Shown here piece by piece: positions 3,915 to 16,307 of a stretch of 23,439 nucleotides of DNA (positions within the stretch are counted from its first letter, which is position 1; each line of letters opens with the position of its first letter). The notes under the pieces are model-generated. The model saw nothing but the letters and a program-made list of their open reading frames with translations, was not told the origin of the DNA and searched no databases. The translations under genes and the position numbers were made by a program. This stretch comes from a virus (taxonomy: Duplodnaviria > Heunggongvirae > Uroviricota > Caudoviricetes): positions 1 through 23,439 of the IMG/VR virus record IMGVR_UViG_3300045988_013110. One strand, given 5' to 3'.

Positions 3915-4732
3915 ACGTACATATCCTGTTTGCGTGCCCACTCAGGGCGTTTAATAATTTCCACGCCGCCCCATTCATCGCTGATGCGGCATTCGTGATA
4001 GGTATTCAGATCCCGGCGGAACAGAGCGTGCCCGGCATCGACATCCGGCGCATCCAGCCCGAACACGCGTACCGGATACCGACCACAATCAATGCTTTCG
4101 CTCACGGCAAGAAAGAAAAAACCATGCGGCTGACCAGTAACCCTCATTGCGCCTTCGCGGTACATTGCGTCCTGCACGTGGTAGCGGAATTCCTCGATGT
4201 GACGTGCAAAACGGTCCATATCTGCAACCTTTTTCACGTCGACGATCACGTTGTGCTCGTTCAGCCATTTGTCTGGACGAATTCGGCACAACTCACCCGT
4301 CTCTTCATCGTTCCAGTACATTGATGCTTCGCAGTAACCAGGTGCTTCCAGCATCCAGCGTGCCGCCGGGTGAGCCATTGCGCTATCACGCATCAGCTCC
4401 AGTTTCCGCCACTGCTCGGCATCAAGTACCGTAATCCCCATATCCGCTACATCACGAAGAAATGCTTCTTCGTCAGCTTTACCTTGTTTCGTCCGACGAT
4501 CGAACTTCGGTGAAACAATGAAGCGTTTGTCGAATTCTCCAGGCTCCAGAAGCAGACAGTGCAATGCGGTTCCCATATCCAGTGCAGACTTTTTCTCTTC
4601 GTCTTCTGGTGCTGCCTGAACCCATTTAAGAAGCGCCGGATTCTTGGCAACCATGTCCAGTTGCGACTTACTCACGCCGTCACCGGCGTGGTAGTCTTCG
4701 TTGCTGATGTCGAAATAAATTCCCGGTTTCAT
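3911..4732 (-). CDS. RecE-type recombination exonuclease (PD-(D/E)XK fold)
   Basis: N-terminal GIYFDISNEDYHAGDGVSKSQL and downstream acidic/Lys residues resemble the RecE C-terminal nuclease domain. Sits directly upstream of the annealase, as in RecET modules. Confidence 0.75.
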   Translation of the reverse strand: MKPGIYFDISNEDYHAGDGVSKSQLDMVAKNPALLKWVQAAPEDEEKKSALDMGTALHCLLLEPGEFDKRFIVSPKFDRRTKQGKADEEAFLRDVADMGITVLDAEQWRKLELMRDSAMAHPAARWMLEAPGYCEASMYWNDEETGELCRIRPDKWLNEHNVIVDVKKVADMDRFARHIEEFRYHVQDAMYREGAMRVTGQPHGFFFLAVSESIDCGRYPVRVFGLDAPDVDAGHALFRRDLNTYHECRISDEWGGVEIIKRPEWARKQDMYV

Positions 4733-5028
4733 GCCGCGTCCCTCTGTCCATCAAGCTGATCCGCCAGATCCCAGCGCGCTATAATTGCCATTGCCTCGCG
4801 CCGGTAGGCATCCATCAGTTCTTCGAACTCAGGGCTGTCTTTAGCAGCCTCCAGCACTTCCTGACGAACGCCTTTGCCTGTTACAACGTCGAAAGTTGAG
4901 GACAGTTGATGAAGTCGGATGCTCTCAATCAGTTCAACTTGTCGGTCATATAGCTGTTCTGACAGGCGGTAGTCCTTGTCGAATGCCAGCATGATTTTTT
5001 GAAGATTTTTCTGCTGATTAACGTTCAT
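4729..5028 (-). CDS. hypothetical protein, possibly a Gam-like host-nuclease inhibitor
   Basis: 99 aa from ATG 5028 with GGAGG Shine-Dalgarno. C-terminal DSPEFEELMDAYRREAMAIIA loosely resembles the lambda Gam C-terminus by memory. Stop overlaps the exonuclease start (ATGA). Confidence 0.4.
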   Translation of the reverse strand: MNVNQQKNLQKIMLAFDKDYRLSEQLYDRQVELIESIRLHQLSSTFDVVTGKGVRQEVLEAAKDSPEFEELMDAYRREAMAIIARWDLADQLDGQRDAA

Positions 5029-5336: not shown

Positions 5337-5921
5337 TTATTGTTTGCTTTTTTCGTTCTGGTTGATGACAAATTCAATGTAACTTTCGATCTTTGCTTTC
5401 TCGGTTTCGGGTAACAATGCGTAGCGCGAGCGATCATAGTTGATGGTCGCAGGGTCGTGCGGGTGAATCAGTAATTCATAGCCGTGACGCCCGAATGCGG
5501 ATGCAACATTCTCCAGGGTGGAAATGGAAACGCTGACCTCATTGTTTAACAGGCGACTGATTGTCACCTGGGCGACGCCGGATGCGCGGTGAAGTTTTCC
5601 CTGCGTTGAAAGGTCGCGGCTTTCGCTCATCCAGCGTTCCAGGTTGTGAGCCGCCAGCTGACCAATGTCGCTTGGGCCGACAGGCTGAAAACCTTCCTGA
5701 GAAAGCGAGCGATCGATATCAAGCCAGTTACGGGGTTTATTGGCGGCAGCTTCAATTTTTCGCGCAACCTGGTCGCCGATAACCTTCTTGCCAAGAGCCC
5801 AGCGGTTTACCAGATTTGCCTGAGTTCCAAGTTTTTCTGCCATCCGCGTCTGAACACCATTGAATTCACGGTCGATCAAGTCGTTGAGATTTTGCCTGCG
5901 GACGTCCTGGATACTTTTCAT
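5337..5921 (-). CDS. prophage repressor (CI-like) with two HTH regions and no obvious S24 peptidase domain
   Basis: Two XRE-type HTH stretches (MAEKLGTQANLVNRWALGKK and ASGVAQVTISRLLNNEVSVSISTLENVA). No GDSM-type Ser/Lys autocleavage motif seen. Divergent from a Cro-like gene with operators in between. Confidence 0.7.
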   Translation of the reverse strand: MKSIQDVRRQNLNDLIDREFNGVQTRMAEKLGTQANLVNRWALGKKVIGDQVARKIEAAANKPRNWLDIDRSLSQEGFQPVGPSDIGQLAAHNLERWMSESRDLSTQGKLHRASGVAQVTISRLLNNEVSVSISTLENVASAFGRHGYELLIHPHDPATINYDRSRYALLPETEKAKIESYIEFVINQNEKSKQ

Positions 5922-11102: not shown

Positions 11103-11701
11103 TGATGCCTGCTGAACCTAAAACCTATAAACGCAAATCAACGCAATTTAAGCCACTAACAGCAATGCAGGAGGCTTATTGCCAGTCATACATCAAAACG
11201 CCTGAAAACCAGACTCAGGCTGCGATTAATGCAGGATTCTCCCCAAATACAGCGGCAGTTAAAGCCAGTGTCATGATGCGCGATGAACGCATTCAGAAAC
11301 GGATTGCCGAGTTGATGGAGGAGCGCAACAAACGAATGCGCGTCAGTGCTGATTACGTTCTCATGCGCCTGGTGGAGATCGACCAGATGGACGTGATTGA
11401 CATTCTCAACGACGATATGAGCATCAAGCCGGTCTCGGAATGGCCTAAGGTCTGGCGGCAGTACCTGACAGGTTTCGAACTGGCCGACATGTTCGAAGGC
11501 CGTGGAGACGAGAAAGAGCTGGTTGGCATCCTCAAAAAAATTAAATGGCCTGACAAGGTGAAGAACCTCGAACTGATTGGTAAGCACGTCGACGTCAACG
11601 CATTCAAAGAACGCCTGGATGTTAATGTGAATGTGACAATTGCTGATCGCATAGCGGCAGCCAGGAAGAGACTGAAAGAACGTCAGGATGGCAATCAGTG
11701 A
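11102..11701 (+). CDS. terminase small subunit
   Basis: Start set at ATG 11102 because the track start at 11024 is a TTG lying upstream of the terminator. HTH-like segment LTAMQEAYCQSYIKTPENQTQAAINAGFSPNTAAVKAS is typical of small terminase subunits. Confidence 0.8.
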   Translation: MMPAEPKTYKRKSTQFKPLTAMQEAYCQSYIKTPENQTQAAINAGFSPNTAAVKASVMMRDERIQKRIAELMEERNKRMRVSADYVLMRLVEIDQMDVIDILNDDMSIKPVSEWPKVWRQYLTGFELADMFEGRGDEKELVGILKKIKWPDKVKNLELIGKHVDVNAFKERLDVNVNVTIADRIAAARKRLKERQDGNQ

Positions 11702-13173
11702 CAGATACAGCGTTATCTCCTGAAGAGCAGTTAATCGAGGATATTGCAGGGTTCACTCACGATCCGCTTGGCTATGCCCTCTATGCGTTCCCATGGGGGG
11801 AAGAGGGGACTGAACTGGCACATGCCACCGGCCCACGTCAGTGGCAGGCTGATGCGTTCCGAGAGATACGTGATCACCTGCAGAATCCAGAGACGCGATA
11901 TCAGCCGCTTATGCTGGCACGTGCTTCTGGTCACGGTATTGGTAAATCCGCATTCATCTCAATGCTGATCAACTGGGGCATGTCCACTTGCGAGGATTGT
12001 AAGGTCGTGGTGACCGCCAACACCGACAACCAGCTACGAACGAAGACCTGGCCGGAAATTATCAAGTGGTCAAACCTTGCTATCACGAAAGACTGGTTTA
12101 CCTGTACCGCTACCGCGATGTACAGCAATGACCCTGGGCACGACAAGCGGTGGCGAGCTGACGCAATCCCCTGGTCTGAGCACAACACTGAGGCATTCGC
12201 CGGACTACACAACGAGCGTAAACGCATCATTGTGGTATTTGATGAAGCGTCGAACATTGCGGATCTGGTGTGGGAAGTTGCCGAGGGTGCGCTAACGGAC
12301 GAAGACACTGAGATTATCTGGGTGGCTTTCGGAAACCCTACACGTAACACCGGGCGTTTCCGTGAATGTTTCCGCAAATACAAACACCGCTGGAAAACTG
12401 CGCAGATTGACAGCAGGACGGTGGAAGGCACCAACAAACAGCAGTTGCAGAAATGGGTTGATGACTACGGGGAAGATAGCGACTTCGTTAAAATCCGTGT
12501 GCGTGGCATATTCCCTGATGCATCTGAATTGCAGTTTATCCCTACCGGTCTTACTGACGAGGCAATGAAACGGGTGGTAACCGCTGCGCAGGTTGCACAT
12601 GCTCCGGTGATAATCGGTGTTGACCCGGCATATTCAGGCGTTGATGACGCGGTGATATACCTGCGGCAGGGGCTACACAGTAAGGTGCTGTGGACTGGCA
12701 ACAAGACTACCGACGATCTGATTATGGCGAAGCGTATCGCTGACTTTGAAGACCAGTATCAGGCTGACGCGGTGTTCATCGACTTCGGTTACGGAACCGG
12801 TTTGAAGTCAATCGGTGACGGCTGGGGTCGTACATGGCAACTTGTTCCGTTCGGTGGCGCGTCTACTGACCCGCAGATGCTCAACAAGCGTGGGGAGATG
12901 TTCAACTCATGCAAGACATGGCTGAGGCTGGGCGGCATGCTGGATGACCAGGAAACAGCGGACGACCTGTCGGCGGCAGAGTACAAAGTTCGAGTGGACG
13001 GTAAAATCGTTATCGAACCGAAGGAAGATATCAAGGAGCGGCTTGGGCGTTCGCCGGGTAAAGGCGATGCGCTACTGCTGACGTTTGCTTTCCCGGTCTC
13101 GAAACGCATAAATATACCAGGACAGCAAAGCCAGCAGGGAAGGGCCATTACAGATTACGATCCCTATGCTTAA
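11698..13173 (+). CDS. terminase large subunit
   Basis: 491 aa; Walker A-like GHGIGKS; GTG start overlapping the TerS stop (GTGA). Confidence 0.9.
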   Translation: MTDTALSPEEQLIEDIAGFTHDPLGYALYAFPWGEEGTELAHATGPRQWQADAFREIRDHLQNPETRYQPLMLARASGHGIGKSAFISMLINWGMSTCEDCKVVVTANTDNQLRTKTWPEIIKWSNLAITKDWFTCTATAMYSNDPGHDKRWRADAIPWSEHNTEAFAGLHNERKRIIVVFDEASNIADLVWEVAEGALTDEDTEIIWVAFGNPTRNTGRFRECFRKYKHRWKTAQIDSRTVEGTNKQQLQKWVDDYGEDSDFVKIRVRGIFPDASELQFIPTGLTDEAMKRVVTAAQVAHAPVIIGVDPAYSGVDDAVIYLRQGLHSKVLWTGNKTTDDLIMAKRIADFEDQYQADAVFIDFGYGTGLKSIGDGWGRTWQLVPFGGASTDPQMLNKRGEMFNSCKTWLRLGGMLDDQETADDLSAAEYKVRVDGKIVIEPKEDIKERLGRSPGKGDALLLTFAFPVSKRINIPGQQSQQGRAITDYDPYA

Positions 13174-13221
13174 TCCGCTGCTGGGGATAATGTCGTTGAT
13201 ATCCTCTGATGAGGATAAAAT

Positions 13222-13250
13222 AAAGCCCGCCAAATGCGCGGGCTTTATTT
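13222..13250. terminator. bidirectional terminator between TerL and the reverse-strand gene
   Basis: Stem AAAGCCCGC / GCGGGCTTT followed by ATTTTT on the plus strand and a T-rich tract on the minus strand. Confidence 0.6.
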
Positions 13251-13258
13251 TTAAATAA

Positions 13259-13606
13259 TTATTTCTTGATAATATTTCCAGACATTGTGCTGGCGTTTCC
13301 ACCAACAGTTTCGCAGATTACATCTCCAGACATGGTGTTTACATTTCCCAATACATTGGAACAATGGACATCACCAGACATAGTTTTCACATAATGTGCA
13401 TCACCGCTTACAGTCACTGATCCATTTTCAATCTCAACACCTTCCACGCTTCCATTAATTGTTACGTTAATCTGTCCGTCAAGATTGCTATTTTTTTCGA
13501 CACCATCAACGATCACTTTTCCATTGTTAATCGTAATATGATGACCAGTGAAGTCTTCTCCGTTGACGCTAACGCTAGCACCACGTACGTTATTGATTTT
13601 AATCAT
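13259..13606 (-). CDS. reverse-strand accessory gene: Gly/Val/Asn-rich beta-helix repeat protein (bactofilin-like)
   Basis: 115 aa; repeated G-x-V/I pattern (ITINNGKVIVDGV..INVTINGSVEGVEIENGSVTVSGD..MSGDVHCSNVLGNVNTMSGDVICETVGGNASTMSGN). Only clear opposite-strand gene in the late region, bracketed by its own terminators. Confidence 0.6.
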   Translation of the reverse strand: MIKINNVRGASVSVNGEDFTGHHITINNGKVIVDGVEKNSNLDGQINVTINGSVEGVEIENGSVTVSGDAHYVKTMSGDVHCSNVLGNVNTMSGDVICETVGGNASTMSGNIIKK

Positions 13607-13714
13607 TATAAATCATCCTCTTTTTGAATCGAGATTAACCTCAGGAGATACTATGACATGTTTTTCATGTATGTCGTAATCTGCATCGATATCATAATTG
13701 TGACGTATCACGCC

Positions 13715-13739
13715 AAAAAAAATGCCCGGCGAACCGGGC
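13715..13739 (-). terminator. rho-independent terminator (minus strand)
   Basis: Stem GCCCGG / CCGGGC with loop CGAA; minus-strand T8 run follows. Confidence 0.6.
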
Positions 13740-13816
13740 GAACTGGAAGCAATGAGTTATGCCTTCCGTGGCTGTACTGGTTTACAGCATGAAGCCATCG
13801 CAATGGCGTCCTGCTG

Positions 13817-13859
13817 TAAAAAGGGCGGTGATAGTCCTTCAAGGGAAACCATCACCGCC
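13817..13859 (-). terminator. candidate terminator downstream of the tRNA
   Basis: 9-bp stem GGCGGTGAT / ATCACCGCC with an 18-nt loop, followed on the minus strand by CTTTTTA. The long loop lowers confidence. Confidence 0.4.
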
Positions 13860-13902
13860 AAGCCCCTGGAACTTCTGGCATCACGGTCCTTAGGCGTGAT
13901 TC

Positions 13903-13979
13903 TGGCGTGGCATGCAGGATTCGAACCTGCGACCAACCGCTTAGAAGGCGGTTGCTCTGTCCAACTGAGCTAATGCCAC
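13903..13979 (-). tRNA. tRNA-Arg (anticodon UCU)
   Basis: Hand-folded 77-nt cloverleaf with CCA: acceptor GTGGCAT/ATGCCAC, D-arm GCTC-AGTTGGACA-GAGC, anticodon stem ACCGC/GCGGT with loop CTTCTAA (anticodon TCT), T-arm GCAGG-TTCGAAT-CCTGC, discriminator G. Confidence 0.85.
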
Positions 13980-14301
13980 AACGCTGAGAGCACTTAGCCT
14001 GTTAAGGCGCCACACTTTGTCGCGGCTCCATAAATGCTCTCATCGTTGTACCCTCGTCTCTTCCGAGGCGTCACACCGAATCGCCGGGATGGTGAATCCC
14101 CGTGCGCGGAATAAAACCGCTCGACTTGCACATTCCGGCTACCTGGTTCGTTTGCCACAGCCAGGGAGGGTGCCCCTTAAACGCATCCAGACCGCTATCG
14201 GCGCATGTGCCATACGCCGTACTGCTCAAAATAAAAGCTCACTCCACCTGTTCAATTTAACGACAAGCCAGTCAGGTTAGTAACCGGAATGAACTCTTTG
14301 G

Positions 14302-14316
14302 TTACCTGAAAGGTAA
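14302..14316. promoter_or_regulatory. operator-like site upstream of the virion operon
   Basis: Perfect TTACC-TGAAA-GGTAA; a GGTAA half-site at 14374-14378 sits at the same 62-bp centre offset. Confidence 0.45.
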
Positions 14317-14406
14317 TAATTCGCGCGTTAAATGTCAACTGTCTACGATAAATAAATCATATGTGGTTAAATTGGTAATAATTTAATTGCGTACGGAGTC
14401 ATTGAT

Positions 14407-14613
14407 ATGTGCATGGGTAGCTCACCATCAGTGCCTGCAACACCAGAAGTTCAGGCAGCACCACAGGAGCAGGATGCCGCCGTTGTTGATGCCCGCGACG
14501 AAGAAACTCGTCGCCGTCGCGCTGCTGCTGGTCGTAGTTCTACGCTGCTTACCGGTTCTCAGGGCGACACATCAACTGCTAATACCAGCGGTAAAACGCT
14601 GCTTGGTCAGTAA
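14407..14613 (+). CDS. hypothetical low-complexity protein (68 aa)
   Basis: GGAG Shine-Dalgarno; its initiation region CGGAGTCATTGATATG is nearly identical to that of the portal gene (CGGAGTCATTGAAATG). Confidence 0.4.
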   Translation: MCMGSSPSVPATPEVQAAPQEQDAAVVDARDEETRRRRAAAGRSSTLLTGSQGDTSTANTSGKTLLGQ

Positions 14614-14627
14614 CCGGAGTCATTGAA

Positions 14628-16307
14628 ATGGCGGAAACAACTAAAGAGCGATTGAACAAACAGTTCGCACAACTTGAAAGCGAGCGTCAGTCGTTCGAGC
14701 CGCACTGGCGCGAGTTGAGTGATTACATCAACCCGCGTGGTTCCCGCTTTCTGACTTCTGAGGTTAACCGTAACGATCGACGCAATACACGCATTATTGA
14801 TTCGACCGGGACTATGGCGGCGCGCACTCTCGCCAGCGGCATGATGTCAGGCATCACAAGCCCCGCGCGTCCGTGGTTTCGCCTGGCTACGCCAGATCCT
14901 GAAATGATGGATTATGGCCCTGTTAAGTTGTGGCTTGAGGCGGTGCAGAACCGCATGAACGATATGTTCAATAAGTCGAATCTCTATCAGTCGCTGCCGC
15001 AGTTATACGGAAGCCTCGGCACATACAGCACTGGTGCAATGGCAGTGCTGGAGGATGACGAGGACATCATTCGCACAATGCCATTCCCGATAGGCAGTTA
15101 CTACCTGGCTAACTCACCTCGTGGCAGTGTGGACACCTGTTTTCGCAAGTTCTCTATGACTGTTCGTCAGCTTGTTCAGGAGTTCGGGCTAAATAACGTC
15201 AGCGAATCCGTAAAAAGCATGTGGGAAAGCGGAACCTACGAGAAGTGGATTGAAGTGATGCATTCGGTTTACCCGAACATTGACCGCGATACATCGAAGC
15301 TGGATAGCAAGAACAAGCCATTCAAATCGGTTTATTACGAGGTTGGTGGCGATAACGACAAGTTGTTGCGTGAGTCCGGATTCGATGAGTTTCCAATTAT
15401 GGCTCCGCGCTGGGAAGTTAACGGCGAAGATGTTTATGGATCATCATGCCCGGGTATGCTGGCGCTTGGACCTGTTAAGGCATTGCAGCTTCTCCAGAAG
15501 CGCAAGTCGCAGTTGATTGATAAAGCCACCAATCCGCCGATGGTTGCTCCGAATTCCCTCAAGAATCAGCGTGCCTCCCTTCTTCCTGGCGACATCACGT
15601 ATATCGATCAGATTACTGGTCAGGATGGTTTCAGGCCTGCTTATCTGGTTAACCCCAGTACAGCAGATTTGGTGGCAGACATTCAGGACACCCGTCAAAT
15701 CATTAACAGCGCCTACTTTGTCGATCTGTTCATGATGTTGCAGAACATCAATACCCGCTCGATGCCTGTTGAAGCGGTGATCGAAATGAAAGAAGAAAAA
15801 CTTCTGATGTTGGGGCCGGTTCTGGAGCGTCTGAACGACGAATGTCTTAATCCTCTCATTGACCGCGCTTTCTCGATGATGGTGCGTAAAAACATGCTGC
15901 CGCCACCGCCTGACGCGATGGAAGGTATGCCCCTGAAGGTCGAATACATTTCCGTCATGGCTCAGGCGCAGAAGTCTATCGGCCTGTCCAGTCTGGCGTC
16001 TACGGTCAACTTCATTGGTCAACTTGCGCAAGCGAAACCAGAAGCTCTCGACAAACTCAACGTTGATCAGGCGATCGATGCATTCGCTGATATGTCCGGA
16101 GTGTCTCCAACCGTCATTGTTCCGCAGGAACAGGTTGAGCAGGCTCGCCAGCAACGGGCACAGCAACAACAGCAGCAACAAATGATGGCGATGGGGATGG
16201 CGGCGGCACAGGGTGCCAAGACGCTAAGCGAAGCTAAAACTTCGGATCCGAGTGTTTTGTCAGCTATGGCGAATGCAGTTAGTGGTCAGGGTGGGCAATC
16301 ACAATGA
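14628..16307 (+). CDS. portal / head-to-tail connector (podovirus, T7 gp8-like)
   Basis: 559 aa. N-terminus and Gln/Ala/Met-rich C-terminus (QQQQQQQMMAMGMAAAQGA...) resemble the T7 connector by recollection. Confidence 0.8.
   Translation: MAETTKERLNKQFAQLESERQSFEPHWRELSDYINPRGSRFLTSEVNRNDRRNTRIIDSTGTMAARTLASGMMSGITSPARPWFRLATPDPEMMDYGPVKLWLEAVQNRMNDMFNKSNLYQSLPQLYGSLGTYSTGAMAVLEDDEDIIRTMPFPIGSYYLANSPRGSVDTCFRKFSMTVRQLVQEFGLNNVSESVKSMWESGTYEKWIEVMHSVYPNIDRDTSKLDSKNKPFKSVYYEVGGDNDKLLRESGFDEFPIMAPRWEVNGEDVYGSSCPGMLALGPVKALQLLQKRKSQLIDKATNPPMVAPNSLKNQRASLLPGDITYIDQITGQDGFRPAYLVNPSTADLVADIQDTRQIINSAYFVDLFMMLQNINTRSMPVEAVIEMKEEKLLMLGPVLERLNDECLNPLIDRAFSMMVRKNMLPPPPDAMEGMPLKVEYISVMAQAQKSIGLSSLASTVNFIGQLAQAKPEALDKLNVDQAIDAFADMSGVSPTVIVPQEQVEQARQQRAQQQQQQQMMAMGMAAAQGAKTLSEAKTSDPSVLSAMANAVSGQGGQSQ

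Follow-up and report, generated by a model that had tools for sequence, protein, structure and literature searches.

Why would a temperate phage keep a tRNA gene on the minus strand between its terminase and portal genes, and what does this tRNA really do? The question is raised by a stretch of 23,439 nucleotides (the whole of the DNA analysed, hereafter the window), in which ARAGORN detected one tRNA only, a tRNA-Arg with the anticodon tct at positions 13903-13979 of the minus strand. The window phage is a temperate, epsilon15-like podovirus of the genus Uetakevirus, with phiV10 and the O157 typing phages 9 and 10 as close kin, and the 1.1-kb query region is about 99% identical to Escherichia phage TL-2011b. 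The integrase gene (202-1452) is followed by an early operon running leftward, the repressor gene (5337-5921, minus strand), a cro-like gene (6076, plus strand), the replication genes, terS and terL (11698-13173, plus strand). A 1.2-kb minus-strand insert separates terL from orf68 (14407), and the portal gene (14628-16307, plus strand) precedes the head and tail genes. Both flanking genes, terL and portal, were assigned by homology to TL-2011b and the prophage of E. coli IAI39, which confirms the location of the tRNA between terminase and portal. In IAI39 the same prophage adjoins guaA, and the 3' end of guaA has been given as attB in the ZX5 paper (PMC9782041). Since the prophage integrates beside guaA and the integrase gene lies at 202-1452, the tRNA is not the attachment site, in agreement with the sequence-only reading, where it was taken for cargo.

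The tRNA is 77 nt long, with an encoded CCA and G as the discriminator base. The cloverleaf with the anticodon UCU, first read on the minus strand from the letters alone, was recovered by both ARAGORN and Rfam; the RF00005 match (13906-13979, minus strand) scores 73.3 bits against a gathering score of 29 (E 1.4e-14) and covers the full model, so that the fold is accepted by a covariance model at full length. Escherichia coli argU decodes the rare codons AGA and AGG, and the identity elements of tRNA-Arg for ArgRS are A20, C35, U36 and A/G73. In the alignment with K-12 argU 63 of the 77 bases are identical, and the acceptor and anticodon stems depart from argU as the sequence-only reading had it: both bases are exchanged in three pairs of the acceptor stem and in two of the anticodon stem, in addition to two changes in the variable loop and one in the D loop. 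The anticodon and its loop, the T arm, the D stem, A20, G73 and the CCA end are unchanged, and all ArgRS identity elements (A20, C35, U36, G73) are readable in the phage tRNA. The tRNA is nearly invariant in about 30 related copies from phages of E. coli, Salmonella and Klebsiella, and across these three host genera it is kept with pair-preserving changes only, while its flanks fall to 72-82% identity. Variation in the acceptor stem among the phage copies is confined to the 3' strand, where it yields G.U wobbles. Judged by its sequence, the tRNA is genuine and intact, with all charging and decoding features kept.

As such, the tRNA is a known and ordinary feature for a temperate coliphage. The RefSeq pipeline already annotates tRNA-Arg in prophage copies, the tRNA is also annotated in typing phages 9 and 10, phiv142-3, SPN9TCW, SPC32H and one Klebsiella phage, and the ZX5 paper mentions 'one tRNA' without comment (PMC9782041). 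The TL-2011b record has no tRNA feature; a plus-strand CDS covers the place instead. This CDS corresponds to an 83-aa ORF antisense to the tRNA (13722-13973 of the window, plus strand) and is probably a mis-annotation. Two points were absent from the sequence-only reading: that the tRNA is publicly annotated, and that it ends a transcript opening with a conserved structured RNA.

The approximately 245 nt directly 5' of the tRNA (14221-13976, minus strand) constitute this structured RNA, which includes a pseudoknot. Its core (14044-14221, minus strand) is matched by a covariance model, R1, with 149 bits in the window and consists, all on the minus strand, of helix P1 (14219-14199), helix P2 (14195-14188 with 14145-14138), helix P5 (14100-14086), the pseudoknot (14094-14091 with 14077-14074) and helix P6 (14068-14052). 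The near-invariant 19-mer GGUAGCCGGAAUGUGCAAG (14143-14125, minus strand) is exact in 114 of 120 copies, which had been retrieved via a different conserved block. Viral contigs supplied 130 copies, of which 111 are distinct, and enterobacterial genomes a further 24. In a MAFFT alignment of 45 representatives the five-helix structure, pseudoknot included, pairs in 97.0% of cells, compared with 27-51% when the strands are slid, and 11 pairs change on both sides, in 104 cells against 31 +/- 7 after shuffling, a value reached in 0 of 500 shuffles. The alignment made with R1, for which 72 copies (65 distinct) score 107-170 bits each, gives the same picture among the distinct copies: pairing holds in 97.5% of cells, both sides have changed in 12 of the 28 pairs, and these changes fill 150 cells against 39 +/- 9.5 in shuffles, again with 0 of 500 shuffles attaining the real value. 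A pair of the pseudoknot is C:G in 58 copies and A:U in seven, with no mismatches. Its near-universal G.U pairs place the element on the same strand as the tRNA.

No Rfam 15 family matches 13980-14300 at the gathering threshold or at E<=5, except for a chance-level hit to ZEB2_AS1_2 (E 4.4). A small protein gene was rejected as the source of the conservation, since no reading frame stays open across the copies, 424 of the 513 gap runs have lengths not divisible by three and the substitutions have no 3-periodicity; the ORFs that annotators have placed over the element are, on these sequence features, probably spurious. A pairing proposed by RNAalifold between GCACAU in the P1 loop region and AUGUGC in the 19-mer was also rejected, as it clashes with the covarying helix P1. 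Both strands of this pairing are invariant, so that covariation is unable to test it, and it would be a possible alternative conformer.

The boundary between the two RNAs is of particular interest, because they overlap. The element is closed by a terminal helix, P7 (13976-14050, minus strand), whose 5' strand (14050-14035) and 3' strand (13992-13977) enclose a variable insert. The conserved end of P7, GUUGUGG (13982-13976, minus strand), is found in 56 of the 63 distinct tails with a GTTGT motif, whether or not a tRNA follows, and its last four bases are G1, U2, G3 and G4 of the tRNA; in every tRNA-linked copy the tRNA begins at the fourth base of GUUGUGG. The basal part of P7 pairs in 114 of 114 cells (17-75% when slid), its 5' strand varying by transitions only, with pairing to the invariant 3' strand kept. 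Between classes the P7 stems are wholly different and still pair (GAGAGCA/UGCUCUC, AAGAGCA/UGCUCUU, GGAAAAGGCG/CGCCGUUUCC and GAGAGCGCAC/GUGCGCUC), a covariation of the upper helix that was judged by eye. The overlap explains two peculiarities of the tRNA: the acceptor stem carries GUGG and not the GCGC of argU because nucleotides 1-4 are the end of the element, and its variation is found on the 3' strand only because the 5' strand is the P7 end. During folding of the precursor, the pairing of P7 with tRNA nucleotides 1-3 could compete with the acceptor stem.

The element is not restricted to this setting. With the lambdoid phage 2H10 the match was limited to the stretch upstream of the tRNA, and a search with that stretch alone matched 86 phage records, nearly all of them unannotated there. 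The carriers are Uetakeviruses, lambdoids of the SfV/cdtI/mEp460/Ayreon type and of the Stx2a/Stx2c type, P1, P7, D6, SJ46 and RCS47, as well as one Klebsiella and one Stenotrophomonas phage. Among complete E. coli genomes 1,840 of 5,426 (34%) contain the element, at 2,472 places, 554 of which are on plasmids, and it occurs in about 20 enterobacterial species; in 40 of 40 sampled E. coli genomes there is no RefSeq annotation under the match. In phage P1 the order is reversed: the element follows the end of tRNA-Ile2 at a distance of 13 nt, within the ban operon, which C1 controls. Lambdoid-type copies, roughly 70 of the 111 distinct ones, have no adjacent tRNA; there the element comes about 45 nt past the predicted start site of a strong P_L, which is itself preceded by cI and a terminator, in that order. 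In the BUCT708 type the element is separated from the early genes on the same strand by a strong terminator, and downstream of the element in the lambdoids no N-type antiterminator was found by Pfam or in the annotation.

Several single copies deserve mention. In the lambdoid copies L035, L048, L091 and L168 a hairpin with a boxA-like sequence (GCTCTTTAA(C/T)AA), resembling nutL, takes the place of P7, and one viral contig, L029, has two full copies of the element on the same strand (3992-4154 and 4799-4959), about 800 nt apart. A full-length element (L136 2937-3104, 114 bits) also occurs after the lysis genes of Klebsiella phage SopranoGao (Lastavirus), near the genome end; this 61-kb siphovirus belongs neither to the lambdoid nor to the P1-like phages. 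A full-text literature search for the invariant sequence returned no paper, and searches on phiV10 and tRNA, on P1 ban and trnI and on SfV antitermination returned no description of the element; the Minerva preprint proved unrelated.

From where is the tRNA transcribed? The promoter scan found no promoter-like site on the minus strand between 13980 and about 14316, and the sole minus-strand site that it reported in 13100-14700 is TAGACA-18-AATTAT (14345-14316), which abuts an operator. An alternative candidate of our own reading consists of a -35 hexamer TTGACA (14338-14333), a 17-nt spacer and a -10 hexamer TACCTT (14315-14310), the latter being under the -10 threshold of the scan; the TTGACA hexamer is kept in the Salmonella and Klebsiella relatives, and the -10 hexamer and start site of this reading are covered by the palindrome TTACCTTTCAGGTAA (14316-14302). 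The candidate promoters of the transcript (14302-14345, minus strand) are both predicted from sequence and stand about 325 nt upstream of the tRNA.

The palindrome belongs to a set: the window has 10 copies of TTACC-N5-GGTAA (at 145, 5203, 5265, 5977, 6025, 8302, 8364, 11070, 11088 and 14302), where 0.43 would be expected. One pair of sites is on the left side of the repressor gene, another separates this gene from the cro-like gene, and further pairs precede the DUF1064 gene and terS; the copies occupy OL-, OR- and terS-proximal positions, and the copy at 14302 fronts the portal operon. The curated annotation of epsilon15 marks 'repressor' sites at the equivalent places, including the homologue of the 14302 site. 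The palindrome is present at every major promoter region, those of terS and the portal operon included. This arrangement suggests direct control of the structural operons by the phage repressor, by a logic that would be P1-like and not a lambda-like cascade. Since the promoter-like sites overlap or abut a repressor operator, the tRNA is probably expressed early, and not in the lysogen or late. We infer that the transcript would be off in the lysogen and on at derepression, running divergently from the portal operon.

A 5' leader of about 80 nt (14222-14301, minus strand), with a weak hairpin (14287-14268), links the predicted start site, at about 14303, to helix P1. The leader contains a motif, CUUGUCGUUAAAU...GGUGGAGUG(A/C)GCU (14235-14270, minus strand), which is found again in other lambdoid copies, within P7 or past it, and, in L044 and L079, downstream of the element cores; it may be the trace of a tandem duplication or a separate module. 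At the other end, directly past the CCA, a trailer hairpin (AUCACG ... CGUGAU; 13880-13900, minus strand) is kept in the Salmonella and Klebsiella relatives. The claim that the tRNA has terminators of its own holds, as two intrinsic terminators follow on the minus strand: T1 (13815-13859), with a 14 bp stem and then CTTTTT at 13859-13824, and T2 (13714-13739), with six G-C pairs and then ATTTTTTTT at 13739-13724. Homology with phages of the phiV10 type ends just past T2, at about 13716.

Beyond T2 lies a swap site for accessory genes (13259-13716 of the window, minus strand, with equivalents in L002, L007, L008 and L009). In the window it is occupied by a variable cargo ORF (13259-13606, minus strand) coding for 115 aa, repeat-rich and assigned to phrog_3163; phiV10, TP9 and epsilon15 have PF13876 (N4 gp49/Sf6 gp66) there, SPN9TCW an unclassified 168-aa protein and a Klebsiella relative a Tad2-like Thoeris anti-defence domain (PF11195). 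PADLOC found no defence-system match among the cargo ORFs. Between the end of this ORF and the end of terL (13173-13252) there is a hairpin resembling a bidirectional terminator, with weak Rfam matches to amino-acid leaders.

If the tRNA decodes AGA and AGG, which genes would profit from it? The sequence-only reading had suggested the late genes and had proposed a count of these codons, which was made over the arginine codons of 34 gene calls of the window with 42 annotated K-12 genes as the host baseline. The phage is higher in both gene classes: AGA+AGG reach 15.4 per 1000 codons in the early, regulatory and replication genes (odds ratio 8.3 relative to the host, p 4e-20) and 5.8 per 1000 in the late genes (odds ratio 3.1, p 2e-4), compared with 1.9 per 1000 in the host, that is, an excess of about 8-fold and about 3-fold, respectively. 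The early genes exceed the late ones (odds ratio 2.7, p 9e-5), and in the DnaT-like replication gene 11 of 15 arginine codons are AGA or AGG. The idea of AGA/AGG supply therefore agrees with the enrichment over the host, but the demand peaks early, not late; the only promoter-like sites leading into the tRNA also speak against late genes as the target, since they overlap or abut the repressor operator and point away from the portal operon.

The demand does not track the presence of the tRNA. Epsilon15, which lacks it, uses AGA+AGG at 13.7 and 5.0 per 1000 codons, the same as the window phage (p 0.56 and 0.58), and the authors who described Tyrion likewise report no tRNA. Since close relatives do without it, the tRNA is dispensable, and since epsilon15 has the same AGA/AGG usage without the tRNA, it is to be regarded as a dispensable helper to which the codon usage is not tuned; its benefit may be small or conditional. 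Epsilon15 keeps a decayed remnant of the structured RNA (41 bits, L009 2742-2847, corresponding to about 2618-2723 of the epsilon15 record), from which the tRNA has been lost; this remnant adjoins a region that its annotators labelled as an RNase III site.

Taken together, we consider it probable that the locus encodes a functional argU-like tRNA-Arg(UCU), an accessory tRNA that is transcribed with the structured RNA from a repressor-controlled promoter, is helpful for AGA/AGG codons but dispensable, and has an acceptor stem shaped by the fusion. Leftward transcription would start at a sigma-70 promoter that overlaps or abuts the operator of the phage repressor, the tRNA, unlike argU, having no nearby promoter of its own, and the transcript would be silent in the lysogen and active at infection or induction. 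It would extend for roughly 400-450 nt up to T1, the first approximately 325 nt comprising the 80-nt leader and the approximately 245-nt RNA, and the tRNA forming the last 77 nt. RNase P would presumably cut at G1 of the tRNA and so free both RNAs, and the tandem terminators would close the unit and shield terL from antisense transcription. The freed tRNA could then boost the decoding of AGA and, more weakly, of AGG. The 3' strand of the acceptor stem would have changed to match the GUGG that is fixed by the closing helix of the upstream RNA, a helix that the 5' end of the tRNA, and not that of argU, overlaps.

On the other hand, the tRNA could be mainly a built-in processing signal for RNase P which gives the structured RNA an exact 3' end, with decoding as a secondary role, and in P1 the tRNA-Ile located 13 nt upstream could likewise set the 5' end of the element. 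This agrees with the constraint of helix P7 on the 5' strand of the tRNA, and with the joining of a tRNA to the element in two unrelated phage groups on opposite sides, as tRNA-Arg overlaps the 3' end by 4 nt in Uetakeviruses and tRNA-Ile2 stands 13 nt before the 5' end in P1-like phages. However, most copies of the element manage without an adjacent tRNA, and the 90 nt that follow GUUGUGG in the 2H10-type copies are not tRNA-like, a degenerate tRNA being rejected there by the lack of any Rfam match at E<=10 and by a fold z-score of +1.1. As the tRNA moreover retains every feature needed for charging and decoding, processing as its main role is unlikely.

Another proposal of the sequence-only reading was that the tRNA replaces a host tRNA depleted by an anticodon nuclease. 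In a wider form, host tRNA-Arg(UCU) would be lost to such a nuclease or to another tRNA-targeting defence, the altered stems of the phage tRNA conferring resistance. It is known that some phage tRNAs escape anticodon nucleases, this tRNA does differ from argU in its acceptor and anticodon stems, and the neighbouring slot holds the Tad2-like counter-defence domain in the Klebsiella relative. The place of the changes speaks otherwise: the anticodon loop (CUUCUAA) and its closing pair 31:39 are identical to argU in all phage copies, the changed pairs of the stem, 29:41 and 30:40, do not adjoin the loop, and the divergence of the acceptor is already accounted for by the overlap with P7. No nuclease with specificity for tRNA-Arg(UCU) is known to us from these hosts; with no positive evidence in its favour, the proposal is improbable. 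Finally, a neutral passenger or relic of recombination without present function would fit the lack of the tRNA in the close relatives epsilon15 and Tyrion, with codon usage equal either way, but a perfect cloverleaf of 73 bits with pair-preserving changes only across three host genera makes this improbable as well.

What, then, could be the function of the structured RNA to which the functional argU-like tRNA is attached? Phages offer several precedents for parts of the arrangement. Stx phage 933W has an ileZ-argN-argO tRNA cluster, and the trnA, trnT and trnI genes of P1 (ban operon) are also accessory rare-codon tRNAs of a temperate phage, trnI being in a repressor-controlled early operon where it adjoins the same structured RNA. 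The tRNA of the window differs in being single, in belonging to a divergent RNA-only unit between terL and portal and in being fused to the 3' end of the element, whereas the P1 tRNA precedes it. Stable RNAs are known from tRNA precursors, such as species 1 and 2 of the T4 tRNA cluster and the c4 RNA of P1, processed by RNase P. They resemble our case in that a structured non-tRNA is joined to a tRNA in one transcript and tRNA-processing enzymes could set its ends; the element, however, has a different fold, is much larger and is in most members not linked to a tRNA. Rfam presumably includes a C4 family, and the element matches none of the Rfam families. The Pas sRNAs (PasA-D) are found in Escherichia and Shigella only, in at most 12.4% of genomes; by distribution alone they are set apart from an element present in 34% of complete E. 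coli and about 20 enterobacterial species, and an identity with them was rejected.

A further likeness is to put (putL and putR of HK022, the putL-like RNA of HK639), another structured RNA encoded in cis on an early transcript, whose terminator read-through depends on the zinc-binding domain of the RNA polymerase beta' subunit; the lambdoid element lies within about 45 nt of the P_L start. Antitermination is an attractive function because the element occupies the nutL or putL position: lambdoid copies are preceded by an early promoter, with no recognisable N gene downstream. This put-like context (past the early promoter, before terminators and N-less) is seen in lambdoids of the SfV/cdtI/BUCT708 type, whereas P1 and the Uetakeviruses differ. 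The element shares neither sequence nor structure with put, and the suggestion that the two are the same was rejected: R1 has no match at E<=10 in the whole HK639 genome or in HK022 24000-32000 (8 kb), and the annotated putL-like RNA of HK639 gives no convincing alignment. Whereas put has about 70 nt and two stem-loops (PMC9378689), the element has 160-245 nt and a pseudoknot, which makes it two to three times larger. It is also present in one copy per phage, and it is found mid-operon in P1 and in a non-lambdoid podovirus. The replacement of P7 by a boxA-like sequence in some lambdoid copies suggests that N/nut can coexist with the element, which speaks against antitermination, and in the window an antiterminator would be counter-productive ahead of two tandem terminators that protect terL.

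Considering both sides, a processed, stable RNA acting in trans, whose ends would be set by tRNA-processing enzymes or by a terminator, has a chance somewhat short of even, antitermination is a tentative possibility, and the rest of our expectation goes to some other function. Equally tentatively, the element may represent an undescribed class of pseudoknotted phage RNA at the start of repressor-controlled early transcripts of P1-like, SfV/Stx-type lambdoid and epsilon15-like phages, which would act on RNA polymerase as a protein-independent processive antiterminator, an analogue of put and not a relative, with tRNAs recruited to its ends as processing signals.

Taken by itself, the tRNA adds little, as phage-borne tRNAs for rare codons are well known. 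The overlap shows how the structure of a neighbouring RNA can reshape the acceptor stem of a captured tRNA, and the value of the locus lies in the attachment of this tRNA to a common structured RNA, which 34% of complete E. coli genomes carry, as do the model phage P1 and Shiga-toxin phages. If the element is a processed stable RNA, it would be a very common phage RNA expressed early. If it acts as an antiterminator by RNA alone, the problem that put solves in HK022 would have been solved a second time, independently, and the element would explain how the SfV-type lambdoids, which are N-less, read through their early terminators.
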